A DNA stretch of 51,289 nucleotides, the filler included, from Stramenopiles sp. TOSAG23-6 (Eukaryota), in NCBI GenBank assembly GCA_900128565.1. It is 2 parts of 2 records of this genome, joined end to end, with 100 filler letters (N's around TTAATTAATTAA, not from the genome) between each part and the next. Parts side by side here need not be neighbours in the genome. Positions count along the whole stretch, not along the records: positions 1 to 25,622 come from LT635994.1; 1 more part is not named here. One strand, given 5' to 3'. The stretch's first letter is position 1. The number at the start of each line of letters is the position of its first letter. The notes under the pieces are model-generated. The model had not been told where the DNA came from, made no database searches, and saw only the letters and a program-made list of their open reading frames with translations. Below are positions 1-25,722 of this stretch, one piece after another. The translations under genes and the position numbers were made by a program.

Positions 1-3000
1 AGCACTTCCATTAGTATAAGATTTTCCTCCTTGAATTTGAATACTTCCAGCATTTTCTTTGCTCGTTCCTGTCTTCAGTATCAAGTCCCCGGAAGGACCA
101 TTTGATGAGTCTCCTGTGAGTAATTTTGTCTTACCACTACGAGAAGCATCAGAACTTAAAATATCAATTGACCCGCTTAATTGATTACCTGTGCCACTAG
201 ACAGTGATACAAATCCACCTCTTATCGTTCCATTTCCTGCTTGTATGAAGACATCACTTCCAACTGAAGTTTTGCTAATTCCTACATTCATCTTTACATG
301 ACCACCATATTTGGAATATAAATTAATACTTCCACTTTTACCATTGGATGCAGTACCAGAAGTAAGAGTAGTAGCTCCACTTGAAGAGTCAGCTGCTGAA
401 GATATGAGAATATCTCCAGATTTAGAGTGTTTGCTTATACCACTTGTGATACTGATAGATCCGCCAGTATATGCTGATGAATTGCCAGAAGCAATATTCA
501 CTTCCCCACCACCAGATACAATACTTGCCTTACCAGCGCTTGCGATATCTGAGGATCCTGATAAAATTACAATAGACCCGCTACTATCCCTACTGCTATC
601 TCCTGTTTGCAATGATAATGAGCCGCTCATCCCTCCATCGGCAGTGGAAAATTGTGTAGTGCCAGTGGCCTGTGTACCACTTCCAGAGACGACACGAATA
701 TTACCTTGAAGTTCAATTCCTCCACCCCGTGTTTTTGAATCTGATGATTCAAGAAGGATAGAATTACCCGTCATTTTTATTTTACCAGATGATCCCTCCG
801 ATGCTCCACCTGAGAGTATTTGGACACTTCCACTCGTTTCAGAACTATTACCAGATGTGATCGAAACTATGCCTTTACTGTTTAATCCAATATTACCACC
901 AATAGAACCACTTGTAGAACCTGCTCTTATGTTGACTACACCTGCATCTTTATCAGANGTACCAGTTTGTATATTAATTGATCCTGCTGTAGCAGATGCG
1001 CTTCCTGTATTGATTGATACATCACCAGATTCATCATTGGTAGAATCGCCTGAAAGAAGATTTATCGTACCGCTAGTTTTTCCAGTATTACTTCTCATAT
1101 TGATATCTCCCCCAGATTCATTTCCTGAACCACTGAATACGGAAATAATACCTCCAGTTGTGGTGCTATTTCCCGACTGAATAGAAATGTATCCTCCAGC
1201 GAAATCATTTGTATACCCTGAATGCACTTGTATGTCACCACCTTTCTGTGAAGATACATTTACAATTCCAGTGACACCATTGGTAGTCGGTCCAGAGCTA
1301 AAGTCAACATCTCCGCTTGAAGAGCCAACCGATGAAGTAACATTAACATCACCAGATTTATATGTTTGACTAACACCACTTAAGACAGTAATATTTGATC
1401 CATTTGAATGCATCGATGAACCACCACTGATTTTTATAACACCCCCTTCATAATATGAGCTACCCACTTCAATATTAATGTTACCAGCCGTAGAATTTTC
1501 TGTGGAACCAGAATGTACATTTATTGCAGCACTACTATGTGTTTCGTGATTACCGGTCTTTAGTGTCAAGTTACCACTGGCATCGCCCTCTGCACTAACG
1601 AATTGTATTTTACCACTAGATTGGCTTCCTGAACCAGATGACATCACAATATTACCATAAAGTTCAACGGAACCACCATGTGTACTTGCTTTTGATGCAT
1701 TGAAAAATACTGAATTTCCATTCACGTTAACTTGACCGGGTGATCCGTTAGATGCACCACCTGACACTATTTGTATACCCCCACTTGATTGGTTACTATT
1801 AGCGGATGTGATAAAAACGTCACGTTCACTATTTAATTCAATCGATCCACCAATAGCTGAATTTGTTGAACCTGCCGTAATTTTCACTGCGGATCCTTCT
1901 GTTTCAGATATACCACTTTCTATTTCAATTGATCCAACCAAATGTTTTGCGGATGCTGTTCCAATAGCAACATTTCCTGATGGACCAATGTTGGCGTCAC
2001 CAGTAGAAAACTTAGTATTTCCCGTATCCCCATTTTCAACACGAGCTGAAAATATATCCAAAGTACCACTAGTTGTATGGGATACCCCAGTAAACACACG
2101 CACATCCCCGCCATTATTTTCAGCATTGCCAGCAGATATGTTTATTGTACTTCCACTTGATCTTTTCGATGTGTTCCCATGAATAAAAACTCCACCTACT
2201 GAAGCTTCATTTGAAGTACTCGTCATAATATGTATATGACCACTGTTGTCATTAGAATTGCTAGTATGTATATCGACTGAACCTGTTGCGGTTGTTGATA
2301 CTGGTGATTGAATACGAACATCACCAGAAGAGATTTTGCTTCTACCACTGATTATTTTTACATCCTGTGCAATCATCCCATCGCCACCTCTAATGATCGA
2401 ATTACCATCATTTCCTGGTATAATAAACGAGTCGCCTTTTGAGTTTAATTTGATATCAGCAGAGTTTGAATGCATATGACCATTCCCCGTTGCTAAACTA
2501 ATACCTCCACTTGTCTCAGCTTCTTGGGATACGACTCTGACATCGCGATTATTTTCACCTAATGTACTTGCACCGGAACTTAAAAAGATATTTGCATCTT
2601 TTAATTTAATATAGCTACCTTTCTCACCATTACGAATGTAAATATTTCCCTTGGATTGACTAGAGTCAATATGTATATTCCTGTCCTGTTCTTTGATACT
2701 CGATGACCCTACATGTATTTTTATTCCATGTGAAATGTCAGTAGTGGTAGAATTTCCCGACGAAATGTGTACGTTTCCAGATGTGCCATTATCTGCATTG
2801 CCCGAGAATACTTGAATATTTCCAGATCTACTTCCTCTAGCTGATTCAACTGTTACAGTATTTTCATTCGCAGCACCACCCTGAATAAACACATTTCCTC
2901 CCATAGATCCAAATTGATTAGTATTGGATCCGGATATTTCGACACTGCCTCCAATAAGATCGGTTTCGTCCGATGATCCTGCCATGATTTGTATATTCTT

Positions 3001-6000
3001 TGTTACATCAATGGAAACAACACCGGATGTGTCAAATGAAGATGCGCCTGAAGAAATAGCAATATTTGCGCTGCTCTTAGATGATTGTGTTGCGATTGAA
3101 ATTTTACCCCCAATTGATGTTTCACCTTCTCCAGTTTCAATAGATATATTTCCACCAGAAGAATGATTTCCAGTAGTATTACCAGCAGATATATCCACAA
3201 CTCCGCCACCATTTCTTTTGGTATGACCAACTGATATAGATATTGATGAGTTGCTATTTAATAGTGAACTTTGACCAGAACGGAGTACTAGAGAACCAGA
3301 AGAACCTTTTGTGGCTGCACCACTATTTATCATAATTTTACTTGTGCTGCTAGAGCCTTCCGAACTTGAGACAATTATATCCCCACTTTTCAAAGAACTT
3401 GCACCACCGCGTATAAATAATTTACCCCCCGGTGCGTTCTGTTTACTACTACCTGATTCAACAATTATATTTGTTTCATTATTTACATTGTTGCTTTCAC
3501 TAGTACTACTATGGATACGTATATGTCCACTGTGAGATTCTTCGGATGCGCCTGTTGTAATACCAATAGATCCGCTACTTTGTTCTGATAAACCTGACTG
3601 AATTAATACATCTCCAGTGATCAGAGAAGACGATGCCGAAGTAAGGAGTATTTCCCCACTTTCTAATTTGCCAGTACCACTGAATAAGTCAATACTACCA
3701 CTTATATTATCAGAGGATCCTGCTGCAAATGAAACACTCCCACCCGAAGTTGTAGTTTCAGTACTTTTACCAACAATAAGTTCGATGGAATTTTCTTCTT
3801 TTCCTGCAGAACTTCCAGTGAAGACTGAAATATTTCCAGTTAATCCAGATATAGAAGTACCAGTAAATATTTTTACGGAGTTACTTTCTACAGATTCTGA
3901 TGTGAAAATGTCCAATTCGCCAGATGTACCCCAAATTTCAGCGTTAGTACTATGCCCTGATTGAATTCGAACAGCACCGTTTTCCTTTTCACTTGACCCA
4001 GAAGTTAATCTCACCAGCCCTCCATTACTTTGGTTTGAGTTACCTCCATTAATACTAACACTTGCAGAATCCTGAAATACGAAATTTCCATCTCCAGCAG
4101 CGATGAAAACTGTTCCGCCGTTATTTTCCTTTGAAGATCCACTCTGAAGAAATAATTTGCCACTTGTGGACCCAACATCCGTATGAATATCAACATCTGC
4201 TCCCTGAACAGTAAAGTTTCCATCAGATCCAGTTTGCTTTGGACTAGTTGACAAGCCCACAGATATTTTTATTGGTTTTCCAGCCCTATTAGATTCCCCT
4301 GTATTTAATAAGATATTTCCTGAATTTAATGTTGAACTGCCAGATTTCACCTCAACTATACCCGACTGACCTTCAGTACTAACACCAGTGGAAATACGCA
4401 CAATACCAGAGCTTCTATTCGCCTCGGGAGTATGTATACTAATATCACCACCATGAGCAGCATTCAATGTAGAGTTGCCACCCATTCCTTTAATTGATTC
4501 ACTTTGATTTTGTTTAATTGAATTTTCACCAGCTATTAAAGTTATATTATTGGCATTTACATTTGACATTCCAGATGAAAATGATATAGAGCCACCCAAT
4601 TTATTATTAGTAGATGACCCGTTACCAGTTGAAAATAGAACACCTCCAGATAATCCATTTAGCGCATTTCCCGTTTTTAACACAGCATCACCAGATGACA
4701 TACCCGAATGTGTGCCTAACGATACACCGCCACTGGGTAACATACCTGAGGACCCAGATGATATTGCAACATTACCATCCATTTTCCAATTTTTAATTTG
4801 ACCTATAGACTCTCCGCCATGAATGCGCACATTACCAGAGATTGCTCTGTTGTGAGCAACACCTGCAGATAAATGAATACTACCTGAATTTCCTGAAACA
4901 GATGTCCCTGAAATTACGTTTACACTTCCTGTAGCCGTGTCTTGGACTGAACCGCTGCCAATACGAATACTACCCGTACGCGAGCTAGTAGAAGAACTAA
5001 TAGAGACAACATCATTTTCAGAAATAAGGCCAACTCCTGCACCAATTCCATCTGATGAATTCCCAGCTGATATTTCTACAGCACCACCCAAGGTATCTAC
5101 TCCTACTTCATTTGATATCTGGGAAGATCCAGAAATATTCAGATTTCCGCCATCATTTTTTTCAGAAGACCCAGGTTTGAGCACAATACCCGAAGTATTT
5201 AATGTCATTTTACTATCACCCGTGGTAATATATATACCCCCAGCTATAGAATGTTGAGTATGATCTGACTCACTCGAGAACGTCACATTTCCAGATACCT
5301 CAAAACCGTCACCACTGGTGAGCTCAAGGGTTCCTCCTTGAGAAAGTGAAGAACTTCCTGTAATAACGTTAATATCAGAGCCTTTCAGAAATCCCATACC
5401 GCTTTTTATTTTCACAGAGCCACCTGAAGAGTTATTGGATGAACCTGACACAATATCAATAGAATTTGATGTTTCTAATTTGATATTTCCAGTATTCAAT
5501 GATGCATTTACAGATGATATAACTACATCACCAGTTTTTTCTGTGTTGCTCTTACCGGCTACTACAGATAAACCACCGCTAGTATTATCAACCGATGAAC
5601 CTATGCGAAATGTAATATTTGCTCCTTCAGTTGTAGAATTACCAGGTAATATAGCTATTTCTCCACTTTCAATAGCACTTTTTGTCTTGATGACAATATC
5701 GCCACTTTGTATTCCAGATTGGGTATTTATTGCAATAACACCTGAATTATTCTCATTATGAAATGTTTTTACGGCAACATTACCACTTTGTCCTGCTGTA
5801 GTACTTCTCAAGTTTATATTGCCTCCTTTTGAATCATTATCTATCCCACGACCACCATCAATTAAGACACTGATATCATCCATGTTTCCACTTGCTTTCA
5901 AAGAAAATGAACCACCAACACTTTTTTCGCCCGATTTACCGCTTATAAGTTCTATGTTACCTGTGCCTTCATCTAATGATGTTCCTGTGCCAATATGTAT

Positions 6001-9000
6001 ATCCCCACTGTCATCTATAGCATTTGGTGATAAAAGCTTTACTTCACCACTTGAATAACCATCTGCACTTGACATGCCAAGAAATCCACCAACATCATTA
6101 ATAGAGTCCCCCGTTGTTACTTCAACGTTACCTCCGAACAATGATGCTGTTTTCGAATTTCTTTCGGAACCTCCAGATATAATAATCGACCCAGCGGAAT
6201 TATTTGAGGAATTTCCAGTGGAGAGGGAAAGTTGACCACTTGATGCACTTGATGTCCCACTTGATAGTACAACATATCCGGTTGAGCCATATTTTGAATC
6301 ACCTGTTGTAACATTAGCAGCTCCAGAATCTATACTCGAAGTATTTGTCTCCAGTGTCATATTTCCACTTGTTTTGCCCTCATGTGTGCTTCCAGATAAA
6401 GCAACAACATCACCGCCTTTACCTGTTGCAGAAAACATTTTCCCTCCAGTTATCGATAATTGGGCACCCTTTTTGAATGTAGACTTTCCTACTCCAATTT
6501 GGATCTCGCCTGAAGATGCATCCATTGAAACTGCTGTTCGAAATGATACAATACCAGAGATTCCTTTCGATGAATCACCTGTGACAATAGACATATTTCC
6601 GGAATTTGTATTCGGAAATGACTCAGAAGATGATAGTGATTCTATTATCATATGTCCACTATTTAAATTTTGAGTACCAGTAGATAAAATAACATTCCCT
6701 CCGTCAGAATTATGCTTCGTTGAAATGCCCCCTTTAATGGACACAGTTCCGGCAGATTCTCCACCTGATTCACCAACAGTAACAAAGATGCCTCCAGAAT
6801 TGTCTCGAACTGATCTACCAGAAAACATTTTTATATCCCCTGATTTGCCCGAGAAAGATGAGCCCGATTGAATATCGATACTTCCGGATATACCATTATG
6901 ATCTACACTTCCTGAAGATGATATACTCACAGTGCCACTTTCATACTCACTACGCCCTGTTTCAAAGTGAAGCGCTCCTCCATACCCATGTCCATTTACA
7001 TTTCCAGCAACCAAAACAATCGAGCCACCATTTTTTCCCTTACTTGAACCAACATTCATTGAAATATCTCCACTATTACCTGAAGAAGAAATGCCTGATT
7101 TCAAAATCACATCTCCGCTTATTCCAGAATTTGTTGAACCAGAGGCAATAAATATGGGACCACTTGATTGATTCGAGGATTTACCCGTCGCAACCGATAT
7201 TTTGCCTGTATCATACACATCAGAATACACAGAAGAAAAGTTGACGTGCCCACTTGTATCTTCATCGCTCATTCCAGAGTAAACAATAATACTGCCACCT
7301 TTCTTCGTCGATTTTGCTGAATTTGACTTTGTACTGCCCCCAACAACTGAAACACTGGCTCCGTTTCCTGATGAAGAAACACCAGCTGAAATATTTATTG
7401 ATGCGGTATCTTTTGAATTACCTGATGTTATTGCTACATCGCCCGAAGCCCCTGTTGGTGCATCGCCAGTAATCAGAGACAACCTACCTGAAAATGTATC
7501 CTGTCTACCTTCAATAACTGCCGATGTTGATACTTTAATGTGTCCACTCTCCATTACCCCAGTACCACTACTCAAACGTAAAGAACCCCCAGTAGATGAT
7601 TTCCCTATTGCTAGACCTCCGCGAATACTTAAGTTCCCTGTAGAAGAGCTGTCTCTACTTATACCGACACCTAAAGTAACATCGCCAGAATTTTCATGTG
7701 CTGAATCGCCAGATAAAATACTTACATTTCCAGAGTCCCCTTTGACCGATGATCCTGTCTGAATAATCGTAGCCCCGGATATTCCATTGGTACCGCCACT
7801 GCCGGAAGACAAGGAAGCACTTCCGCTATTCCTAGGTCCACGACCCGTTTCAAAACGAAGAGCACCTCCATTTCCATCTCCATTTGCATTTCCAGCAACA
7901 ATCGCAATCGATCCACCTCTTGACAAGTCACCTTCTCCAGCACTGATATAAACACTACTTCCTTCGCCAACGGATGAATATCCTGTGCGTACAGATACAC
8001 TTCCACTTGACGAATTATGTGCATCACCAGTCCGAAAAATAATAGGTCCACTGGAACCATCAGCTGACTTCCCTGTTACTATAGACATAATTCCGCTGCT
8101 ACCAGGAGATGTGACACTAGATGATATAGATGTGAAAGAAATGCTACCACTTGAATATTGTTTTCCCTTCCCCGACAAAACAACAACGCTTCCTCCTCGA
8201 GTACCTGTTCTGTGTGCTCCAATCATCTCAACGTCCATGCTTCCAAGATTCATCATACTTCCACGAGATTCAACACTATGACCAGTTGCAATTGATACCG
8301 TACCGGTTCGACGCTCATCAGATGAACCAGATTTTATGTCAACTTTGCCTGAATGGGAATTACTCTTACCTGTGCGCAATTCAACTGACCCACTCTTAAC
8401 ATGATTCCCACTTGCTGTTGATATATCAAATCTTCCAGAATTTAATTCACTTGATGCACCTGTTTTCATTCGAATTTCATATCCTTTAGTAGATTTCTTT
8501 GAGTAGTCTGGTAATGCTTCAATGTGTAGATTTCCTGCCAATAATTCTTCACTACTCCCTATAGAAAGCGTTACATCTCCAGCATTTCCACGATTTGTGT
8601 CATCAGTTTTTATTGTAATGTTGCCAGCTTTCCCAGCACCATGATGTATTCCAGTAGTAAGTGAAATGTTACCACTATAACCGGTGTCGGACTCGCCAGT
8701 ACCCACGAACAATGAACCAGTGTGAGAATTATTCAAATCATCACTGTTGCCTGTTATTATCGATGTTATTCCTGTAGATCTCTCGAAACTACCTGAACTA
8801 GCGTTTAAAGACCCACTCTCGACAATAATGGAACCTCCAATTTTCGAATGGGAAATACCGGATGCAATATTAATTGGTGCGCTAAAATCTAACTTCGAGC
8901 GTCCACTTTTGATATGTATGACTGCACCATCATGGTATTGTGTTGCGCCGACAGATAAAGTCATTGATCCTGAGTTCTCTAGTTTGCTTTTTCCTGTCTT

Positions 9001-12000
9001 AATATGAATGTGCGAACTTGACGATTGTCTTGAATCAGGCGAAAAAACATGAACATCTCCGCTACCCATTCCTTGTTTTTCAGTTAAACCGCCGCTTTGT
9101 ATATCAATTGACCCCCCGTCTGAATTAGTACTTGACCCAGCAGATATATCTAAATGTCCTGACTGAACAATAGCGCTCCCTGTACTAATATTTATATCTC
9201 CACTATCAGAATGATATGTTGCGTCACCAGTTTGAAATTCAATGTGTCCACTGTTGACTGCTGTTTCCGATGATCGAACCAATATCTCACCTGATGTATA
9301 ACCATCACCACTAGATAGTTCAATAGAACCTCCTACATTATTTCCGCTGACAATGTTCGCATCTACATCACCAGCACGAATGATAACACTTCGAGGTGCA
9401 TTATATGCATCCAATATATCTTTTTTTGATTCACTATCATTTTTGGTATTACCAGCGGCAATGTAAATAGACCCAGCAGTTCCGTTTTCCGCAAAAGATC
9501 TACCAGAGTTGATTGTTATATTACCAGATCTGTCTTTTATACTATTTCCTGTTTTAAAAGTAATTCTACCACTGGCACCTTTAATCCCACCTTCCCAATA
9601 TTCTGTTGCATTATCAGAAGAAATAGATAGACTGGCACTTTGTCCTGGAGTGTTCGGACCTATATTGAGCCTTCTTTGAACAGACTGAAGCGCCGAAAGA
9701 AGATCCATAGTAATTGCAATTTTGTCAACTTCATGAAAGTTATCACGGGAAAAATTTGTGTTTGATAGTCGAAACTTTTCAGTTGTATAAACATGTTCTG
9801 GGAAAATAGATTTTACTTGCTGGGCGATAATTCCTCTAACTTGATGTTTTACCCCATAGTCACCAGAGTCGAGGTGTCGTACTCTAGCCCAATCAGGGGT
9901 ATATCTATACTTTTTCATTTTTAGATCTTGAAGTCTTTGTAATATGCTATCTACATCTTGGTTTTCAATATTTTTTTTAATTCTCTCATCTGAAACATCT
10001 TGTGGATAAATCTGCGCAGGGACATGCATGAGTACTTTGTCTTTCCATACTCTAAACACTGTTGTTCCTTGTTTAGATTTATCTGTACCACCCTCAGAAC
10101 GCTCACCCCCGGCATTAACGTTTGCAAGTTCGTGACGAACACTGAACTCTCCGGTGGACTCTACAAGGTTTAGCGACACATCGAAACCACTATATATTCT
10201 AACATCATGACTATCTGTATTTGTAGACAGAGATAATGCACCTCTACCTGATAATTTCATAAAACTACCAGACTTATTACCTTTTAATTCGATATTTCCA
10301 TATTCCTCGTTTGAATCTCCGTGGCCTTTTCCCGGTTGCACGGTAACACTACCACCAACGGAAGTCAAAGAATCCCCCCCAAAAATTTTGATGGAACTGC
10401 TACTGCAAATACCACAAGCTTGTCGGCAGTTTAGAAGAATATCATTTTGACCAATATCAGAATATCCATATAGAGATTTTGCATTTTTGCATGAACGACT
10501 ATTCCAAGATAAGCATTTGTCACCTTTTTCATCGGTGAAATCAATTGTGTCGCAACATTCGCCAGTTCCGCAAATACCAACGGATGTTCCCGTCGAAAGG
10601 ACAATACTACCGCTCTTACCTTTATTGTTATTAGCAGTTTCAACTGTAAACCCCCCACTAAGATGTGTAGATTCCCCAGTCAGTATGTCAATTTTACCAC
10701 CTTGTTCAAAATCAGAGTTTGTTTGGCCAGCAATTACGGTAATATTTCCACCGTTTTCGATATCAACGGAACCACCTGAAAATGTGATGTTTCCAGCAGT
10801 ATTACTGGCAGCTGCTGTTTCAATATAGATACTACCAGGTACTGAAGACGTTGAATCTCCAGTCTCCAGAATTATGTTTCCTCCTGCAAAAGTCCTACCA
10901 ACTAAAGAACCACTCAAAACAGGACTATCGCCAGTGGCGATTGAGATAGACCCACCTTTGTCACTGGTCGAAATTCCGGCAAAAATATTTACATCTGATC
11001 CCGTATAGGTATCTGTGTTACCGCCGGAAAGATTGATATCACCACCTGTGGGAGTTTCAATGATTATTGGTGCAGATGAATCGGAGCTTGCTAATCCTGT
11101 CTTAATTTTTAAATCATTACTTTTACCATTGAAAATACCATCACCTGTTTGTATCATTATACCGCCACTTTTATCTATGTCCTTTGAGTCTAATGTCGTT
11201 GTGCCACTCTTAATACTAATGGAACCTCCTTTTGTATTCTTAGTAATAGCAGCACCGGATTTTAGGATAATCGAACCGCCACTTAAATTTGGTGTTGTGA
11301 TCGATTCCCCAATAGATAAACCGGTAGCAATCGAAATGCTCCCGCCTGAGCCTCTTGCAGACGACCCACTAACAAGAGATACATAGCTAGAGTTTAATGT
11401 TTCTTCAAAAGAATCTCCTGTCACTAGCTCGATATTTCCTGTGGATAATGCGCCTTCTTCTGGTGATGTAAATGCAGAATACCCTGTTTTAACTTCAATA
11501 GACCCGGTTGATGTTGTAATCGGATCAAGATTCCTTACTGATTCACCAGAACCTTTTCCAGTTGACACATTAATTTCACCAGATGCAGCAGAGTACGGAA
11601 CTACAATTTTTACTTTTCCAGATTGCAAATAACTCTCCCCTGTTGATATCAACGTGTCCCCACCGAGTTTAGCAGATTGTGAAGTTACAGTTGCTTCACC
11701 AGCTGAAAACTCAATGCTTCCACCATTTCCAAATGTAGTACTAGCACCTATACCCGAAGTTAAAACTTGATCCCATGGCTTGTTGGGCACAGTTCCACTT
11801 GCAAAGATAATATCTCCACTAAAGTCACCAGCAGCGCCACCAGTAGAAATCGACATACTTCCTACGGTAGTCCAATTAGATCCTGCATTTAAACATTCTT
11901 TCTTTGTTTTATAATTATTGTTTTCACAAACACCACTTCTAGCGCCATTATCCTTTAAAATATCCTTATTTGAACCAGTCTGAATTACAAGAGAACCAGA

Positions 12001-15000
12001 CATTGAAGATTTTGCCGTGTTTACCGTAATGTCACCAGAAATTCCAACATCTTCATCAGATGTAAAATAAGTTTTACCAGATACAATATCGATATCTCCT
12101 CCCACATGATCGAACAAATCCTCAGTTTCTACCATAATACTCCCTGCAAAAATATCGACATTGCCTGTGGAAACTCCACCAGCTTCTTTCTCTGACAGTG
12201 CGTCACCTACTTTTATGCTCATTGAGTTGCCACCCGGCGAACTTTTATTTGATCCCGTATTCATGGAAATACTACCTGAGCGTGTCCATGTATACCCCGC
12301 GGTAATGCATTCATCTTTATCAAGGATATTAACATCTAAACATCTACCCATAACACTATTCGGAGAGGAAGCAGATGTTTCAAATACAATTGAACCCGAG
12401 GTAAAATCATCAGAAGTATCAATATTTATGCTTCCACTAGCAGCCTTTTCTGTATTACTAATACCTGTCGATAATATAATATCACCACCAGTTCCTACAT
12501 TTTTATTATCTCGATTTCTTGTTTCCCCAGCTTCTATACTTATATTTGAAGAAGTTTCTCCAAGTCCACCTTTCATCCTAAATTCTCCAGCTTTTGTATT
12601 TGCATTTCCAGTTTTCAGTAAAACACTTCCTACAGAAACATTTTGCCTAGATGGTGAAATGACATTACCAGAAGATATTCGAAAAGCACCGGATTCACCC
12701 CCAGTCACCGTCTGTTGTTTTGTTTCTAGTTTGACATCCCCACTTGTACCAGAGGATACACCCTTCCCAGTTTTTACATGAATATACCCACCAGACATTT
12801 TTTGAGCTTTACTACGCCCTCCACCTATAAAAAGTTCCCCAATAGATGTACTACTCGTACCTGTACGAAATAAAATACCAGCAGCTTGGCCAGAATGAGC
12901 ATGTCCAGTATGCAATGTAATATTACCTGAATTAGATGCAAAGCCTTTACCAGTAGAAATACCAAATGACCCGGATACTCTCGAAGTAGATGTAGTCATA
13001 CTTATTCCACCACTATGACCAGTATTCCCAATACCCGAAGCTAACTTAAATGAGCCACCTTGAAAACCATCATCAATTGATACACTATTTCCTGCAACGA
13101 AGGAAACGCGGCCTCCTTTTGTAGAAGCACTTCCAGTACTTAGTGAAATCGAACCTGAATTTGTTTCACTAGAAATACCATTACCCGTTTCAATATCCAA
13201 ACTTCCGGACATTCCCTTATTTGCGGCACCCGAGTAAAGCGAAATAACACCTGATTTACCTAAAACTCCACTATCTGGTGTTTTTATATCCAGATTTCCA
13301 CTACTAGATTTTTTGTTCATTCCAGATGTTACTTTCGTATTTCCACCATGAACATTACCAGCACTTGAAATATCACCAGCAGAAATTTTTATTCCGGCAC
13401 CGATAAGCTTTTTAGCTACACCTCCAGAAATATGTATTGAACCAGCAGCACTAGTTGATGATACCGTGTTGCCCGTTGCAAATACTAAATGACCTGTATT
13501 TGTATTTTCGTGCACACTATTTCCAGTGGCGATAGAAATCAGTCCACTGGAGCCCATACTTCCTCCATTAACGGTGATTAATTTAATATCTCCACTTGAA
13601 CTCTTGGCACTAAATCCAGACAATACATTAACATTACCTCCAGATGCAATCGAATTTGAATTGCCAGCATCAAAAGACAAATATCCACCTTCTTCGCCGT
13701 TTTCGTTAGCTCCAACTAAAACATTTATACTACCACTAGAGCCGTAAGTTGCCTTACCAGTATGTAAAGTAATTTTACCAGAATTTCCACCTTTTGCTTT
13801 ACCTGTATGAAGAGATATGCTGCCGCTATTACCTAATATACCCCCTTGTGATGATACAACAGAGATTAATCCAGATGTACCCTTTGATGAAACATTCCCC
13901 GTATATATACCGACTTCTCCACCAATGTATTGTCCGTTGACGCTTCCAGCACCAATAAAAAGTTTCCCACTCATTTTACCTTCATTTGTTGTAGCGTCTC
14001 CGACAAAAACATTTACATCACCTGCTTTATCACCCATTGCATTTTCAGTGTTAACGGTAATATCACCAGCATTGCCCTGTACAGAATTTCCAGTATAAAC
14101 GTCCAAATGACCACTTTTTCCATTTTCCCCATCAATATCAGATGTTGCGAATACGACATTGCCACTTCCAGATTTGTATGTTGACCCACTTTGTAATAAT
14201 ACTCCGCCACCATTTCCATTTTTGGATTTTCCTGCTGTAATCAAGATATCCCCAGTTTCTTTATCCTTTATCTCTTTACCAACTTGTAACGTAATATTAG
14301 ACGGGATGCGAGACACATCTGTTTTCAATATGATACTCCCACTCGCTCCTTTTTCAGCATGACTTGTTTCAATAGTAATTTTTCCCGACATTCCACTTGT
14401 ACCGCTATTTTGAGAAAGAATCTTAATATTTCCACTGGACGTTTTTGTAGCATACCCTGAGATGAAGTTCACATATCCACCAGATGATGCCATTTCAGAC
14501 ACTGTATTAGTTTTTGCACCACCTTTAATGCTGACATGTCCTCCGCTTAGTGGGCCAGATCCCAACCCGGATTGAATGAAAATATTACCGCCTTTACCAG
14601 ATGAAGCGATATATGAATTTAAACGAATGTCACCCGAAATACCGTTTGATGAAGTTCCTGTAGAAATGTTCAAACTTCCACTAACTCCAGAGTTTTTTCC
14701 TGGGCTTTCAGAATATACATTTAGTATTCCACTTGTTGCCCCATTCCCTAAACCTTCGCCGGTATGAAGTGTAACTACACCCCCAGTACTTTCATCATTA
14801 GTACTACCTGCACTAATGACGATATTACCTCCAGATGTATCACTATCAACGCCGATTTCATTCATTCCAACTTGAATTGTCAAATCTCCAGACTTTCCAA
14901 TTTTCGCGAGTCCTGTTTCTAACTTAATATTACCACTATTTTTCTGGTGACCTACGCCTGTCATCATAGTCATAGAACCACTCACACCGGAGACGCCTGA

Positions 15001-18000
15001 GTTTGGTATATTGATCGAAATGTCCCCACTTGATGTCAACGCACCAAAACCAGTACTTAGTTGTAGTTTCCCACCAGATAAACTTCCGTTTCCTGACTGA
15101 ATAAGCACATCTCCACCATTGCCTTTATTATTTACTCCTGTGGCAACCAGAATAGAACTTCCTTGGTCCATGTCTGAATTCCCTGTCTTGAAATGAATAG
15201 ACCCGGAATAACTTTCACTTGACAAACCAGTCTTTAAAGTTAATGTGCCCGATGCAGTAGATATTTTACCTGTACCTGCACCTGATTTCATTGATGAAAT
15301 AAAAATATCGCCACTATTCGTCTCTTGGCCTAGACCAGATATAACCGCAATTTCACCACCCGTAGAGGAACTCTTTGTATTTCCACTTCTAATATCAACG
15401 TTGCCTTCTTGTACAGTTGAACTTTCACCACTCCCAACAACGATGCTGATAGATCCGGATACTTCTGAAGATGATGATAGACCTGACTTCAGTAGAATAT
15501 TTCCACCACTCCCATTCATTTGATTCGATTTTCCACTCTGGAGTGAGATATTTCCAGTAGCTCCTGCTTCTACATCTGTATTTGATGTTTCAATAATCAA
15601 GTTTCCACTGGATTCTTGCATACCTTGACCACTGTGTAGTTGTATATTACCCCCGGAGGACGAAGTCGAAGTTCCAGCATGAATGGCTACATTAGCACCA
15701 TATTGCATCCCATTTCCAGCTTTCACACTTATGGGACTACTTTTTCCATAAGCAGGACTATCCGAAGTTGCTATTAATATAGATCCAGAGTGTGGCCCTC
15801 CTTCGACCTTACCAGTATTAATTTGAATTGTTCCACTATTTCCTTTGATACCTGCTTGTTTTGTCATGATGTCAAAGTTTCCACTTGATGTGTTTGAACC
15901 GACACCAGTGTTTAGCAGTATCGTTCCACCACTTTGCAGAGTGGAGCTTCCTCCATTAAGAGCAATCGTACCCTTAGGATTTGAATGCGAGCCAGAAGAT
16001 GAACCAGCATCCAAAATGATTTGGCCTCCTCTACCGGTGATTGCTTTGCTCGTAGCTACATATATATGACCACTAGATAATTTACCACTTTTAACTTTCC
16101 CTGTATTAATGCTTATAGTGCCACTGTTTGCGTTGCCACCAGAACCAGCGGTGGGTGACATCACAGTCACAGCACCACTTGACGAAGCATTACCTTTTCC
16201 ACTTTTTACTACAACTTCACCACCACGCTGTGCTTCAGTATTTCCTGATGAAATTAAAACACTACCACCAGAAGAATATAATTTATTGGATTCCCCGACA
16301 GTCACTTCAATATCTCCTGATTTCCCTTTTATTGTTTTTCCTGTCATGAGGGCAATCCCCGTTTTTGAAGAAGTTGTTGAAAGAGAATGTTTTCCAGTTT
16401 GAATTACAATATTGCCACTTATACCAGCTGCATCTGCTTTTGGAGTACTCATAGTTAGATTCCCACTGGTAGACCCCTTATCTATGCTTTTTCCTGTTTC
16501 AATTTCAATATTTCCAGAAACCGAATTTTCTGCAGAAGTTGATCCAGATTGAACCTTTACTACATTTGCATTTCTTTCAGTTCCGCCAGATACTGAAATA
16601 GTTATATTACCACTCAAGCCCTCTGAAGATGAACCCGTTTGGATCAAAACATTCGAAGAAAAACCAGATGCTGTATTTCCTGAAGTTATTTTAACATCTC
16701 CTGTATGTCCTCTATCAAGACTAGTTGCACTACCCAGTTTCAGGTCACCTGAATTTTTCAGATCTCTATCAATATTTGAATCTATTCTTGGAGAAGAAGA
16801 AATTACGACATTACCACCATTTGCCGAAGTTTCCTCTGTAATACCAGCAATCATTTGTAAACTACCACCATCTTTATTTACAAAACCATCGCCCGACTGT
16901 ACAATAATATTACCAGTTGATGATGAACTTGCTCCTATGGGAGCACTAGATACTATAATATCAATTGCATTAGAATGACCTGATATTGTATTTCCAGTAG
17001 TCAGTGTTGTATCCCCACTCGCCCCTTTTTGTCCGCCATTTGCCGACGACATTTGAATATTGCCGCTAGTTGAGTCTTCACCTCCACTAAGACCACTCTT
17101 TATATCGATAGTTCCACCATAACTATTCGAACCACTTGACCCGACTACTTTACCAGATTCTATAGTTAAAGAATTGCCTGTGCCTGTATTTCCATTTCCG
17201 GCACTTGCAGTGATGTTTCCACCAGATCCATTTGTAGAATTACCACTAAATAATGAAACATGACCAGAATCTAAAGCATTGCCACTGCGGAGAACAATAT
17301 TTCCAGAGGGAACCTTGGTTGTAGCAGAAACCCTTTTTTCGGTATTTGAAGAAGCAATGAGCAGATCCCCACTATTCAAGGAATACGAACTTCCTGTCTG
17401 TAACAGAGCTTCACCAGATGGGTCGCGATTGAAACTTTGGCCTGTACCAATTTGAATTTTCCCACTTCTCCCATATATACCAGCTGAAGAACTTTTTATA
17501 ACCATCATACCACTCGAAGTCGACCGACTCAAACCAGTCTGCATAACTACAGATCCTCCAGATAGTGACTCGTCATCTGATATTGCACCAGCCTTCATGC
17601 TGAAAGTGGCACCGTTTTTTGTATCACCCGCACCAACCTGGTACATAATACTACCGGCTGATCCTACAGTAGCACTTCCTGTTGATATTTGCAAGGTCCC
17701 AGTATTTCCATTTGTCGTATTACCTGAGTATATATTTACATAACCACTATTTTCTCCATCGTTGTCTCGGTGATTTGAATTTAGAATAACATTTTTCTCG
17801 CCATTAAATCGAAGAGTTCCTGCTTGTATCTCTAATGTTGACTTTTCATCAAATGCTGAATCAAGAAGAATATTCCCTCCTTCAAGTGTTACCTTGCCGC
17901 GCCGTCGAGTTGAAGATGCAGCCTGGCCAGTCATAATTTGGATACCACCCGAGTCTTTCATTGCAATTCCATCTCCTGTATGAAATATAATTTCACCACT

Positions 18001-21000
18001 AATACCAGCTGTCCCAGAGTCTTCTGTTTTAACCTGTATATCCCCACTTGATGACATCAAACTTTTCCCAGTAGTTAATGAAATATCACCCCCCTTTCTC
18101 CTCCTATCAATCATTGGAATGTCGCCAGCATTTATTGTAAAGTTTCCTCCGAATGTGTCAACTAGTTTACCTTTACCAACATACAATTCAATGCTATTAG
18201 GGGGCTTATTTATAAAGACATCTTTCTTTGACTTCTGACTATCTCCCGTTTCAAGTAAAATATTTCCACTACTTCCACCACGAGTTGATTCATCTGATTT
18301 CACAGAAACTCCTGTCATGAGCTCAATTTTTCCACTTGAACCTACTGTAGCTGCCCCAGATTTAATAGTAATCGTCCCACTAGCATTGCCATCAGCAAAT
18401 CCATATTTTCCAGAATTCTCTGTGTGTAAAATGATGCTTCCACTACTTGTTCCTTTTGAAAATCCAGAATTTAATTGAACACGACCTCCACTAGAATTCT
18501 CTCTATCAGTTGCGACGCCAGCTACTACGGTGAAGCTACCACCTTTTACAGATTCTTTGTTTCCACCACCTACAATTAAGTGAATGTCACCCGCTTTAGG
18601 AGAGTCAGATTCAAATATTAATCTCTCCATATCCGTAGACCCAGTTGAGAGTGAGAGTGACCCAGACGATGATTCCTTTTTAGTTGATGAACCGGTTGCA
18701 ATTTGAACGAAACCCGAAACTCCTTCACTTGATTTTAATGCATTTCTTGTTGCAATAGAAATGTTTCCACTTGAAGTTTTCTGTGACATTCCTGATACAA
18801 GTCTTATTGAACCCCCAGATACACCACCAAGTCCAGTATTACCCCCAGCAAGTTTTAAGGCACCTGCAGAACTAAGATGACTATCACCAGCAGAAATTGC
18901 CACTTTTCCTGCTGTACCTAGGATTGAATTTCCAGTGACAAAAGACAAAAGACCAGAGCTTCCTTTACTTGAAGTTCCCGTACTTATCATAATATTACCG
19001 GATTCGCCATTTTTTCCAGAATTTACCGTTGTAAGGCTAATATTACCCGACGAGCTACTTTCGCTGTAACCTGCTTCTAAAGAAACTTGTCCACCTGTTT
19101 CTCCATATGACGTGTCTACCGAACCTTGGATTTGACCCGCTTTCACTATTATGTCGCCTCCCCTTTTTTTTAAACCCTTTCCTACGGTTATTGAAATATT
19201 ACCACCAACGTGAGAAGCGGAGCCAGAATACATTAATAATGATCCAGAATCTTCATTGGGTGCTTCACCAGTACTTATAGAAATATCCCCGCTACTTCCA
19301 GATGTACCTGAATTGGCCGTTTGTACATGAAACGAGCCACTACTTGAAAGTATTTGTGTCCCCGTAGTTATATCAATTGCACCACCGTTCTTTGTAAGCG
19401 ATGTGCTATCTTTAGTATGCCCAGCACTTATAGAGACTTTTCCCCCGTCACCACTTTTATTAAGAGAAGTGCCAACATTGAGCAAAATATCTCCTCCAGC
19501 GCCTTTTGCTGCAGTATTGGTCTCAAGAGAAATTATACCACTACCTCTGGTCTTGGTGGAACCAGTGGATATTGTTGCGTCACCACTTACTCCTTGTTTA
19601 CCTGCATTTGCAGTATTTAAAAATAAAGTTCCACTGTGCAATTCGTCAGAGAAACCCGTCGTCACTTTAATCAACCCACCGACTGAATTACCCTTAGTAT
19701 CTGTATCTCCTGCTGAAATGTTCAAAAATCCGCCCTCGTTTTTGTGTGATATTCCAACAGCCACGCGTTGGTCGCCACCTTTACCATCAGCTGAGGTTCC
19801 AGTTGATAGTAAAAGATCCCCAGATGATGCATGTGCATCACCAGTGTAGATATTTATACTACCACTACCACCTTTATGACCAGATGGCGCGGTTTCTAAT
19901 GTTATTTCACCGCTAGACCTTTTAGAAGAATATCCTGAAATCATTTCAACTAATCCACCTCTACTACTAGTTTTTATATTACCTGCATTCAATTCGATGC
20001 GCCCCCCTTCTTTTGCGGATGCGCTACCGACAGATGCAAGAATATCACCCGCATGACCAAGCTGAGATGAATCACTCAAAATTGATATCTTGCCGCTTGG
20101 ACCATTTTTAGAAGATTTGCTACCTATGCGAATCGATCCACTCTCGCCACTTTTTGTCAAATGCAATGCACCGTTTTGTGTTGCAAGGATAACTTCCCCA
20201 CTCGATGTAGTGAAACTTTTGCCAGATATTACATTTAATTCACCACCTCTAGTATGACTATTTGATGTACCACCTGTGAGAAATAAATCGCCGCCTACGT
20301 CAGCGATTTTATCAAGACTACCATATGTATTACCCGCACGAAAGTGTACCGAACCTCCAACAGCATTTCCGATATCTTTGGTGCTCAATGTATTACCACC
20401 TTGAATAGCGATTTTACCTCCTACAGCTGCTTCCGCGGTAGTGTCTCCAGCATTGCCAACAATTTCACCACCTTCATTTGTGTCCCCTTTTCCCAAAGTG
20501 ACAGAGTAGTCACCACCGTGCCCATTGACACTAGTACCACTTGTAAACTTCATTAATCCAGTTGGACCCAGAGAAGAACTTCCAGTCGTGATGTGAATTG
20601 TACCAGACACGCCTTTTTCTCCAGCATGGGTAGTGTCAATGTATATGTTGCCAGAGTGCCGTTGGACTCCAGAACCTGAGGTTAAACTGATATCACCACC
20701 GGACCTGGCTTTGCTTGTTGTATTTCCGGCATTCATGGTAATAATTCCACCTGATTTTGTGTCACCAGAGCCAACAATTACATCAATATCTCCAGCATGT
20801 TTATCTGTAGAATCACCAGTAGTAAATACAATATAACCAGAATTACCGTTTGATGAAGTTCCTGTGCGTAAATGTATATGTCCAGATACACCTTTATCTC
20901 CTGAATTTACAGTCGATAGAATAATAGAACCGCTTGTTGAAGCTTTCCCAGTACCAGATAAAAGTGTTATCTCTCCCCCAGTTCCTCCAGCAGATTTTCC

Positions 21001-24000
21001 AGGCTCCAAATTAATGATGCCCCCTTGGTTGTCTCTCTTTGTACTATATCCATGTCCCCCAGATAAGATGACATCACCACCAGAACTTTTATAATCATCA
21101 GCAAGACCATGTCCTCCACTCACTTTAACATCTCCTCCTTTAATGCGTTTATTAAACAAAGCTTTATTCGTGTCACCAGCTTGGATATTTACTTGCTGTC
21201 CTGTCTTTTGCCCTTGATTTACAGTAAGAGAAATCGCACCAGAAAATCCATATTTAGCTTCCGATGTGTGAATTCGAATGCTTCCACTATCCTTCGATTT
21301 CTTCAGAGATGCAGATCCAGTTGATATTTGTATTTGACCACTATTTCCTCCGCGGTCATAGCCTGCATTTCTAGTAGATATTATAAGTGGTCCACTATCA
21401 GCCTTTGTGGCATACCCAGTGATTAACGCAATATGACCTCCTGTTCCTTGTACGGCATTGGCAGCAGAGAGTAAAATACTACCCCCTTTTTCGTTGCGAG
21501 AAGTGCCACTAGCAACCCCACCATCAATCGTTACAGTACCTCCACCACCACCTTTTAGCTTACTCAGGGAGCCCATACCACCTCTTATATTAATGTCACC
21601 ACCAAATCCTTTGGGTGATTCTGTATTTCCTGCTTCTAGATAAAATTTACCACCCTCATCACTATTACCATCGCCAACTAGAAGAACAATTGAACCTCCA
21701 TTACCCTTATTTGCTTCACCAGTGACTGTTTTTATTGAACCGGAAGTTCCACCTGTTGCAAATCCAGTATTAATTCCAACAAGTCCACTAGAGCCTTGTA
21801 TTCCCCCAGTGTCAGTTCCAAAACTGACATCACCTGACGAAACAGTCCTGGATGATCCAGATGTTAACGATATTTTCCCACCTTGACCTTTTTTATCAGA
21901 AACGATACCACCAGATAATATTTGAATCATTCCACCAATATCGCCATCATTACTATCACCAACAATAGCACTTATGCTACCACCATGGTTACCTTTAGCC
22001 TTGCCAGTGCTAAGTCGCACATATCCTGATGCTCCAAGTGAAGCATCACCAGTTGTGATATTAATACGATTGCTGCTACCTTTTTGTCCACTACTAACAG
22101 TCAATAATTCAATGTGGCCACTTGATGTATCGGCACCATATCCACTAAGGAATATCATACTACCACCTGAGCCATTTGCAGCAGCTCCACCATTTAATTG
22201 CAATGACCCACCAATGTCTCTTGTTGGATTAGGACTTTGACCCTTTGCAATACCTGCAGTAAAAATGATATCTCCACCATTGCCTCCATCAATATATGAT
22301 TCTGATATCCCTGATCCACCGATAATTTGTACTTTTCCGCCAGTTTTTTTTGAAGAAGAAGTCTCACCAGCAACAAACACGGCACTACCTCCGTCTTTGT
22401 CACTATTTCCAATGGTCAACGTAAAACCCCCACCAGCACCATTATTTGCTTTACCAGTTTGCATTGAAAATTTCCCTGTAGTACCAGCACTGGATGTTCC
22501 TGTGGTTATACTAATTGCTCCACTCCCACCACCTTTCACTCCAGAAACACCACCAGAACCCGAATTTGTATTTTCACCTGCATTAGGTGTAGATATAAAG
22601 ATATTACCGGATGATGTGTAACTAGAATAACCCACATTTAAAGTAATTTCTCCACCAGTATTATGATCGAAAATATTTCCACTTTTTATAGATATGTGTC
22701 CACCTTCAGCAAACGAACCCTTTCCTACTTGAACTTGTACATACCCTGCAGCTCCTCCAGTGGATTGACCTGTACTCATGTATATTTGACCAGAAGAGCC
22801 AGCAGTAGTTGTGCCAGTCTCGAGGTTCATTGTACCAGAAATACCTTGTACACCCGCATTTCCTGTAGCAAATGCAAACACACCAGAGTTTTTCTCAGTA
22901 CTAACACCCGATGCCATTAATAATGATCCACCGTAACCCATGAAAGATTTACCACCTTTGATATCAGTATTTCCAGCATTGTCATCGTTTGTGGAACCTT
23001 TGGCATTTCCACCAATAATTTCAATAATTCCACCATCTCCACCATCGTAAGTGTGTGTACTACTACCTACACCTCCAAATAATGCAATATTTCCGCCAAT
23101 ACCTTCATCACCACTTGCAGTACCTGCTCGATAAATGATACTATCACCTACTGATGACATTCCGTCACCAACGGCAAAAGTCAAGTCCCCTCCACGACCA
23201 TCTTTGGCGAATCCTGTTTGTAACATTATTGCACCTGAATTTGAACTCGAATTTGTACCCGTTGACAATGATATTAAACCAGTGGACTTTACCGAATCTG
23301 CAGTAAAAAGATCAATATTTCCTCCAACTCTGTCTCTGCTTTCCCCGGACTTCATACGGATAGTCCCGGATTGACCATATGAAGCGGTGCCACCTTGGAC
23401 AATCAAAGTACCACCATTATCTCCAACATATGATCCTCGCGAAATACCAGAAGTCAGTTTAACAACTCCTCCACGCCCACCACTATAACCGTCTGTGTAT
23501 AAAGTTTCATCACTTGCACCTTCACCACCATCGAGTAAAATAGCCCCACCAGATGTGGATACTGCAGAAGAATCACCAGCTGATATTGTGACTTCATTAC
23601 CATTTGTTATATCTGCAGCCCCTACTCGCATTTCTATAGTACCTGATTTGCCGTCCCGACTGAAACCTGTAGCTATATTTATAGTACCGGTACTTCCACC
23701 AGTAGATTTCCCAGTCAGGACACCCAATGTGCCACTTGATCCAATGATGCCAGCGTCATTTGAAGCAATCACAACTCTACCGCTAGAAGTAGCGGTACCT
23801 TCTCCAGAGCGCAAAATAATCGAGCCACTAGCACCCATCTCATTTGTACCTGCATCTATTTGAATTCCACCAGCGACACCATCAGTAGAACTTCCAGCAA
23901 TGGCAACTACATTACCTCCTTTACCAAATCCCGCTGAACTTTCTGCTTTGCCACCCGAAACAACAACTTTCCCACCAACACTTGAATTATCAGCACCTCC

Positions 24001-25622: not shown

Positions 25623-25722
25623 NNNNNNNNNNNNNNNNNNNNNNNNNNNNNNNNNNNNNNNNNNNNTTAATTAATTAANNNNNNNNNNNNNNNNNNNNNN
25701 NNNNNNNNNNNNNNNNNNNNNN
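25623..25722. other. Artificial contig-joining spacer
   Basis: Exactly 44 N + TTAATTAATTAA (stops in all six frames) + 44 N = 100 bp. Confidence 0.95.

Follow-up and report, generated by a model that had tools for sequence, protein, structure and literature searches.

What place does a self-cleaving chaperone domain, of the kind that stands at the C-termini of phage tailspikes, have in the middle of a giant protein of an apparent eukaryote? The question is raised by a 51,289-nucleotide stretch of DNA from Stramenopiles sp. TOSAG23-6 (GenBank assembly GCA_900128565.1; the whole stretch is called the window here), positions 1 to 25,622 of which come from LT635994.1. The minus-strand frame running from 24897 to 1 is stop-free for 8,299 codons, exits the window at its left edge and encodes a Peptidase_S74/ICA domain set between long tracts of Gly/Ser-rich repeats. 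An earlier reading of the sequence alone had proposed that the product trimerises and cuts itself at this domain into two giant fibres. Our analysis confirms the domain, places it in a family that shares its layout and leads us, on balance, to favour a polyprotein that would be secreted, form trimers and split itself into two beta-fibres.

Previously, ICA domains were familiar from viral and bacterial fibres, whose C-terminal chaperones they are before being discarded, from MYRF, which they switch from within, and, by prediction, from the end of giant dinoflagellate fibre proteins. In the present protein an ICA lies between two giant, putatively fibrous, segments. The layout spans a broad, apparently undescribed protist family including oomycetes, whose sequenced stretches carry between one and three such domains, live ones as well as naturally dead ones. 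If cleavage does take place, eukaryotes would build micrometre-scale secreted fibres from polyproteins by phage-style, quality-controlled folding.

An S74/ICA domain between two repeat regions

The sequence-only reading had located the domain at 9670..10020, and profile searching bears this out: Pfam PF13884 matches over positions 1-58 of its 58 with 47.2 bits against a cut-off of 22 (E = 2.7e-12). The best sequence match in the PDB is the ICA domain of MYRF (7dc3, E = 3.2e-6), which is also the top Foldseek match (E = 1.1e-7) of an AlphaFold2 model of the domain, built on a 35-sequence alignment with a predicted local distance difference test (pLDDT) score of 76; the phage chaperones 3gud and 3gw6 come next. 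The phage fold matches share 11-20% identity with the domain, and five PHROGs tail-fibre families match it as well. By itself the S-D-x-R-x-K motif does not rise above chance, appearing in 6.8% of 2,000 shuffles of the open reading frame (ORF); the assignment to S74/ICA is secure despite this. According to the family hidden Markov model (HMM) there is a single S74 copy in the ORF, with no further one downstream within the window.

As had been claimed, the motif (SDERIKK) is intact. The S-D-x-x-x-K dyad stands at the N-terminus of the domain as Ser5004, Asp5005, Arg5007 and Lys5009, residues being counted along the minus-strand frame from window position 25002. With MYRF numbering counted along the PDB-match alignment, equivalents of S587, R590, K592, Y615, Y617, I637, Q639, E647, F666, V669 and K671 are all present.

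Upstream of the domain, the frame extends for 4,968 residues to a run of Ns at 24898-24954 that interrupts it. DNA runs X2 and X3 bridge this gap with 70 letters, which by arithmetic puts a further 222-residue piece in frame with the main ORF and gives a total of about 5,214 residues before Ser5004. Downstream, about 3,220 repeat residues run to the window edge (3,331 counted from Ser5004). The chain is thus more than 8,500 residues long with Gly/Ser repeats on both flanks of the domain, and the earlier figures of more than 5,100 repeat residues upstream and more than 3,200 of the same repeats downstream hold good. The 222-residue piece aligns with the start-of-repeat regions of homologues, being the top-ranked of 424 blocks for one of three homologue queries, and its probable place is close to where the repeats begin. 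N gaps at 25623-25722 conceal the true N-terminus, and the window lacks both ends of the gene.

Both flanks have a 15-residue period and a common core, G-x-I-x-I-x-[TS]-G. In the upstream repeats the period is 15 for hydrophobic residues and 7, 8 and 15 for Gly; Ser content is 20.5% in the downstream flank against 16.4% in the upstream one. Ser and Thr together make up 25-28% of the giant protein, a composition that makes O-glycosylation plausible. No Pfam family matches the repeat region above cut-off and no PHROGs or NCBIfam family matches the parts sampled, whilst the ESM Atlas look-alikes of the repeats (score 0.98, with low recognition, 958) carry no family.

A family with the same layout

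Exhaustive searching with phmmer yielded 172 clusters at E <=0.001, the best 150 of the 172 being taken on, and a metagenome scan gave 35 loci. The two sets together hold 216 domains, 54 of them with at least 120 residues before and at least 100 after. Repeats are found on both sides in 50 of these 54, one of the 50 being a bacterial protein and a chance match. For tree building, 102 short or >85%-identical rows were removed, leaving 114 rows of 123 columns only. In the resulting tree 98 rows form one branch (support 96/89), 97 of them labelled as family beforehand, distinct from the remaining rows, of which two are MYRF-like and 14 hold other S74 domains; the phylogeny to which the sequence-only reading had pointed thus gives the family a branch of its own, separate from viral, bacterial and MYRF-like domains. 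Among dereplicated family domains with the same room before and after, repeats stand on both sides in 31 of 31. Across the sequences compared, the repeat-S74-repeat layout is a family trait.

Only five of the 30 proteins looked up are organism-named: Phytophthora infestans PITG_01491, Aphanomyces astaci, A. euteiches, Achlya hypogyna and one with the label of an archaeal metagenome-assembled genome (MAG). All four named eukaryotic homologues belong to zoosporic oomycete genera, and the ESM Atlas neighbour cluster is mostly oomycete. Databases already label family fragments 'Peptidase S74 domain-containing protein'. PITG_01491 is a 392-residue gene model with repeats all the way to its two ends, and probably represents one part of a far larger gene that was split in error; entries from Aphanomyces and Achlya are probably fragments of the same kind. 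The archaeal MAG protein (RYE85057.1), filed as 'tail fiber domain-containing protein', falls inside the family branch and probably comes from a eukaryotic contig placed in an archaeal bin by a binning error.

Many family loci are giant genes with introns, with an exon boundary shared among relatives. The number of S74 domains varies: metagenome locus L003 and protein P0001 have three each, loci of the L024 type two. The repeat period is 14-15 in L003, L004, L016 and L024. Gene starts were caught in L004, L009/L011 and L010, each with a hydrophobic N-terminus and a first exon ending in YW. After the first exon come PSI-like cysteine modules and then repeats; no such module was found for L010. 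Neither the window nor any of the 35 metagenome loci shows a C-terminus. Word-indexed protein searches gave no homologue among 254 candidates of 4,388-13,964 residues, two matches among 1,979 shorter candidates and one among 8,000 with an alignment, and no full-length homologue among them.

Several loci deserve separate mention. In L003 (2-11755), three S74 domains lie within 3,918 residues in the order live-dead-live; copies 1 and 3 and long blocks flanking them are near-identical, which may reflect a recent tandem duplication or an assembly effect. Nearly the same gene is found in nine marine metagenome contigs (L024-L031 and L033); in those that extend far enough, a single exon holds two intact S74 domains spaced about 1,900 residues from each other. 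L006 (1-6652, plus strand, frame 1) and L008 (1-11334, plus strand, frame 1) each consist of one frame broken solely by TAG, 10 times in 2,217 codons and 25 times in 3,778 codons, respectively, and never by TAA or TGA. Repeats and S74 domain continue across these TAGs, so the host probably reads TAG as an amino acid.

Intact and decayed copies of the active site

In MYRF, S587A and K592A abolish cleavage, Y615 and Y617 matter and K671 adjoins the site (PMC8326128). Across the 97 family domains the catalytic Ser is present in 74 and absent from 23 (18 Ala). Lys at position +5 is kept in all 74 Ser-bearing copies and in 10 of the 23 Ser-less ones; the corresponding figures are 71/74 and 9/23 for the Y615 equivalent and 70/74 and 9/23 for that of K671. 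The Asp at +1 (71/74 Ser-bearing, 23/23 Ser-less), the Trp (73/74 and 21/22) and the Arg of RG[VI]IAQ (73/74 and 23/23) are retained in both groups, as is the F666 equivalent. Catalytic residues thus decay jointly whilst fold residues stay, as expected if Ser-bearing copies are selected for chemistry and Ser-less ones for structure. The pattern points to a family in which selected catalysis exists alongside dead structural copies, and such natural live/dead pairs would separate the chaperone role of the domain from its protease role.

The window copy keeps every catalytic residue despite its long branch (0.77). Cleavage just before Ser5004 is predicted by analogy with MYRF, endoNF and Bd3182; for the last of these, S74 self-cleavage has been shown and is blocked by a Ser-to-Ala change (PMC10769870).

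A predicted homotrimer

Modelling of three copies of window 9583-10302 gave a trimer with a score of 0.86, against 0.00 for the best of three controls. At least 89% of contacts are in common between runs and pLDDT is at least 77; the family alignment was not used. The interface includes construct residues 2-59 and 79-103 (the stalk, predicted to be intertwined between chains), and with them the bulk of the strands upstream, a pattern expected of chains wound together in the stalk. In the model, Lys5009 makes contact with the residue equivalent to Y615 in a different chain. The pass mark was calibrated on two copies rather than three, and is reached by 21 of 30 solved homo-pairs and by none of 23 single chains; among eukaryotic chains 17 of 29 pass, and without an older solved relative one of seven. 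Because MYRF and phage ICA trimers have already been solved, the pass may reflect memory. The model predicts that the S74 region is a homotrimer with an intertwined stalk.

The earlier idea of a self-cutting trimer therefore stands in part. An intact active site, a passing trimer model and the co-conservation of catalytic residues all favour it, but the Ser-less family domains mean that non-cutting copies exist.

Comparison with known systems

The earlier account was correct in placing S74 domains at the C-terminus in phages, but MYRF and MrfA already provide eukaryotic examples of a protein divided by an internal ICA (PMC3742443, PMC3828593). These give the best match in sequence and fold among solved structures, with the same S-D-x-R-x-K dyad and accessory residues in an internal eukaryotic ICA, and their cut gives two trimeric halves (PMC8326128, PMC3742443, PMC3828593). 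The differences are considerable, however. There is no Ndt80/PhoG DNA-binding domain among the Pfam matches of the ORF pieces scanned, and the domain is followed within the window by neither the PF13887 long coiled coil nor a membrane helix. The flanks consist of thousands of repeat residues, the protein is predicted to be secreted and not cytosolic, and the family occupies a separate branch of the tree. A clade uniting the family with MYRF was neither found nor rejected (p-AU 0.498, approximately unbiased test, 40 rows). On the Ndt80, PF13887 and membrane-helix findings, membership of MYRF is rejected.

The closest precedent in terms of function is TLP-12, a glycofibril in the form of a trimeric beta-ribbon, for which Amoebophrya proteins about 20,000 residues long and bearing an ICA at the C-terminus are candidates (bioRxiv 10.1101/2025.09.30.679562). 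Like these candidates (e.g. A0A8J1ZHD7), the protein described here is a giant protist Gly/Ser repeat protein with an ICA, for which an interwoven trimeric beta fibre has been proposed. The TLP-12 repeat, however, is 12 residues long (GSxxSx7) whereas that in the window is 15. Tandem GSxxSx7 is absent here (0 pairs, 0.27 in shuffles) and GSxxS occurs 20 times where 47 are expected. The ICA is C-terminal there and internal, often multiple, here, although the C-terminus beyond the window edge could hold another. TLP-12 candidates are from alveolates, whereas the present family is from oomycetes and other probable stramenopiles. With no tandem GSxxSx7 repeat found, TLP-12 membership is rejected.

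Phage chaperones (endoNF, 3gw6; GA-1 neck appendage, 3gud) have the same fold and dyad and a beta-rich stalk before the cut site. S74 fibres are also known from polinton-like viruses, a Heterosigma giant virus and Bdellovibrio, the domain being terminal where its position is given (PMC12220804, PMC13659346, PMC10769870). In the phage, polinton-like virus and giant-virus proteins it is terminal and discarded, whereas at least 3,220 residues follow it here and there is no viral context. The Bdellovibrio MAT fibres resemble those proposed for the family in being cellular, signal-peptide-bearing, trimeric surface fibres, but they are bacterial and of about 1,000 residues, and 13 members end in S74 with no downstream fibre (PMC10769870). 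Mas/Ocm, the mastigoneme proteins of stramenopiles, have a signal peptide and 3-4 EGF-like domains and are of about 60 kDa (PMC12223298), in contrast to the scanned ORF, where no EGF-like Pfam match was found. The giant protein is a member of the S74/ICA domain family and is not a MYRF protein, a phage fibre or a TLP-12 candidate. In the full-text literature searched, from which most subscription journals fall outside, there is no description of a repeat-S74-repeat protein in stramenopiles.

Proposed assembly and cleavage

A pathway can be put forward on this basis, in which the precursor would belong to a marine flagellate. A signal peptide and PSI-like cysteine modules, seen in homologues, would lead the chain into the secretory pathway. 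Three chains would then meet at the S74/ICA domain, in line with the trimer model, and nucleate a triple beta structure of intertwined chains within the stalk and perhaps the upstream repeats. After trimerisation, the Ser5004-Lys5009 dyad would cut before Ser5004 and release an N-terminal fibre some 5,400 residues long. This fibre would measure about 250-320 nm if each repeat adds 0.8-1.0 nm, a rise taken over from TLP-12, for which 9.6 A for one repeat and 14 nm for a series of 18 are given (bioRxiv 10.1101/2025.09.30.679562). The second piece, of at least 3,330 residues (at least 170-200 nm), would be capped by the spent ICA trimer, and the short helix after the ICA may set the register of the three downstream chains. 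In relatives with several S74 domains, live copies would be cut points and Ser-less copies internal trimerisation nodes.

We regard this pathway as probable, with a number of observations counting against it. Ser-less rows cluster on the tree, 10 changes accounting for 19 rows, so that few independent events underlie the live/dead contrast and Fisher p values for it exaggerate how independent the rows are. The residue before Ser5004 is Val, found at this position in one of the 74 Ser-bearing copies, namely the window copy itself (Ser is found in 41 and Pro in 29). The helix after the ICA, at about 18 residues, is about half the length of that in MYRF-like proteins, where trimerisation is driven mainly by a long post-ICA helix (PMC8326128). 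Modelled as a single chain, the repeats give a poor result (pLDDT 47) that resembles a one-chain beta-solenoid. The PSI matches, of 22.9 and 17.0 bits, fall below the cut-off of 23.1, and the signal peptides were judged by eye only. RNA support is weak, too: run X6 has depth in the bin containing the S74 domain and X5 has none.

Some of these observations would suit an S74 domain that cuts slowly or not at all and acts as an internal trimerisation node, restarting folding within one continuous fibre of more than 8,500 residues. Since Ser-less family domains keep their fold residues, the family evidently tolerates loss of cleavage. The window copy, besides having Val before the Ser, is one residue shorter just upstream of it, and a kink from Thr or Pro at the preceding position has been proposed to aid cleavage (PMC3828593). 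Yet that residue varies between endoNF and the MRF proteins, both of which cut (PMC3828593), and Ser-less copies often lose the Lys and the Y615 and K671 equivalents, all of which the window copy keeps on a long branch. We consider a non-cutting node unlikely in the window protein.

The fate of the downstream part is a separate matter. The S74 domain might cut, and the sequence beyond it be a tether, stalk or pro-region; the pieces might stay bound; or the repeats might be single-chain solenoids joined at the stalk. ICA domains are known to fold what precedes them, not what follows (PMC3742443), and the C-terminal trimer of MYRF remains in the endoplasmic reticulum. The missing C-termini would leave room for such a role, and the low-confidence repeat monomer model looks like a single-chain solenoid; its best fold match is of the SufB/D type (Z 13.4, root-mean-square deviation 3.7, 243 aligned), and neither the model nor its fold matches were used as evidence of kinship. 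On the other side, the downstream repeats have the same period and core motif as those upstream and may exceed the upstream segment in L024-type relatives, and no membrane helix is found in the 3,220 downstream residues within the window (maximum 19-residue Kyte-Doolittle mean 1.24). These alternatives seem rather improbable to us, and a second beta-fibre remains the reading that we prefer.

A possible link with flagellar hairs

If the protein is a secreted fibre precursor, what might the fibres be? One suggestion is that the family supplies the precursor of thin stramenopile surface filaments, either the terminal filaments of tripartite flagellar hairs or thin non-tubular hairs. The chain would then act as a length ruler, with live S74 domains cutting trimeric beta-fibres of fixed, unequal lengths and dead ones restarting folding, which would allow fibres of hundreds of nanometres. 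The proteins of the thin hair filaments are not among the three known shaft proteins. Putatively secreted homologues, a flagellate host as suggested by the IFT46 neighbour, homologues in zoosporic oomycetes and predicted lengths of 0.2-0.5 micrometres would all fit. We offer this idea as a speculation with rather long odds. The sources consulted were PMC3471859, PMC12223298 and bioRxiv 10.64898/2026.09.11.750887; the supplements of PMC3471859, PMC12223298 and PMC5322657 gave no usable result. PITG_01491 and five neighbouring identifiers were not found in the main texts, PITG_01491 is not in the P. infestans flagellar candidate table, and the P. parasitica zoospore proteome supplements contain no S74 term, a search that would miss an unannotated entry; none of these is evidence either way. 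More generally, the family provides sequence candidates for unassigned environmental fibrils and for protist surface hairs.

Integrity and origin of the locus

Four sequencing runs were compared over window 5700-25622. One contig of DNA run X2, from an independent study, spans 5700-10359 without a gap and differs in 28 letters, so that the S74 domain, 113 codons upstream of 10020 and about 1,300 codons downstream are joined independently; the next X2 contig begins at 10361. Beyond the compared stretch, X2 contigs extend by about 2.6 kb past 5700 and by 1.4 kb past 25622. Among 40 listed differences 38 fall in the main ORF, 19 silent and 19 non-silent, with no stops; 98 further differences are unclassed. 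The runs containing the sequence are from seawater; the small word shares in runs X6-X9 are not evidence of habitat. RNA contigs (X5 and X6, from one sample) fall on both sides, without an intron joint. Expression of the giant gene is hinted at only, and DNA carry-over is possible.

Beyond the gaps, the window at 26756-51243 carries genes for IFT46, an HD-domain protein, an amino-acid transporter, a GT8-like glycosyltransferase, a kinase, an IQ-motif protein, a Skp1/POZ protein (which we take to be Elongin C-like), RhoGDI and a large ubiquitin hydrolase (USP). With IFT46, USP, RhoGDI, Skp1/POZ and kinase genes as neighbours and relatives that have introns, the gene is eukaryotic, as the sequence-only reading had supposed.

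This bears on a further explanation, that the locus is a viral insertion (from a giant virus, a polinton-like virus or a phage tail gene) or an assembly chimera joining two repeat genes at the S74 domain. S74 fibre genes are common in polinton-like viruses and present in a stramenopile-infecting giant virus; the domain matches tail-fibre families of PHROGs; and the gene, which has no intron in 25 kb, lies next to N gaps. But its neighbours are eukaryotic, an independent contig crosses the S74 domain without a gap, its relatives are intron-containing genes with a shared exon boundary and the family branch lies apart from viral and bacterial rows. A tblastn search against 50,697 phage records gave no match, viral contigs gave two weak loci, both without the repeat layout, and none of 36 candidate stretches in prokaryote genomes was confirmed. 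We reject both viral origin and chimera, which are highly improbable on this evidence. The features of the giant gene are collected in Table 1.

Table 1. Positions of features of the giant gene in the window
Feature	Window position	Strand	Basis or remark
Giant ORF, C-terminus beyond window	1..24897	-	Open frame; 0 repeated-intron motifs inside versus 14 outside
Upstream 222-residue piece, same repeats, in frame with main ORF	24955..25622 (in-frame part 24957-25622)	-	70 letters from runs X2 and X3 span the N gap
Upstream Gly/Ser-rich 15-residue repeat region, predicted first fibre	10363..24897	-	Period analysis
Downstream Gly/Ser-rich 15-residue repeat region, predicted second fibre, at least 3,220 residues	1..9660	-	Period analysis
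Two-cysteine insert, residues 4221-4232	12307..12342	-	Second similar one at 11893-11928
Eight-cysteine insert, residues 4811-4866, shortly upstream of stalk	10405..10572	-	Translation
Beta-stranded neck/stalk directly before predicted cut site, residues 4901-5003, family-conserved	9994..10302	-	Family alignment and predicted strands
SDERIKK motif (Ser5004, Arg5007, Lys5009); predicted scissile bond Val5003-Ser5004	9973..9993	-	Equivalence to MYRF S587/R590/K592
Peptidase_S74/ICA domain, residues 5004-5111; terminal helix of about 18 residues runs directly into next repeats	9670..9993	-	Pfam, PDB match, model

The eight-cysteine insert suggests an oxidising, extracellular setting; the two-cysteine inserts have no match among the relatives fetched. 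A pair of N gaps enclosing 12 letters lies at 25623-25722, between the 5' part of the giant gene and a plus-strand exon with an intron acceptor; the first exons may be hidden in this scaffold join. The repeated intron motif GTACCTAAC (either strand) occurs in 14 copies among the neighbouring genes at 25727-51243 and in none within the 25-kb ORF. Further contigs of run X2 agree with the repeats over short parts before diverging (window 7046, 17233, 18260-18777 and 24278), which would be consistent with paralogues or with related species.

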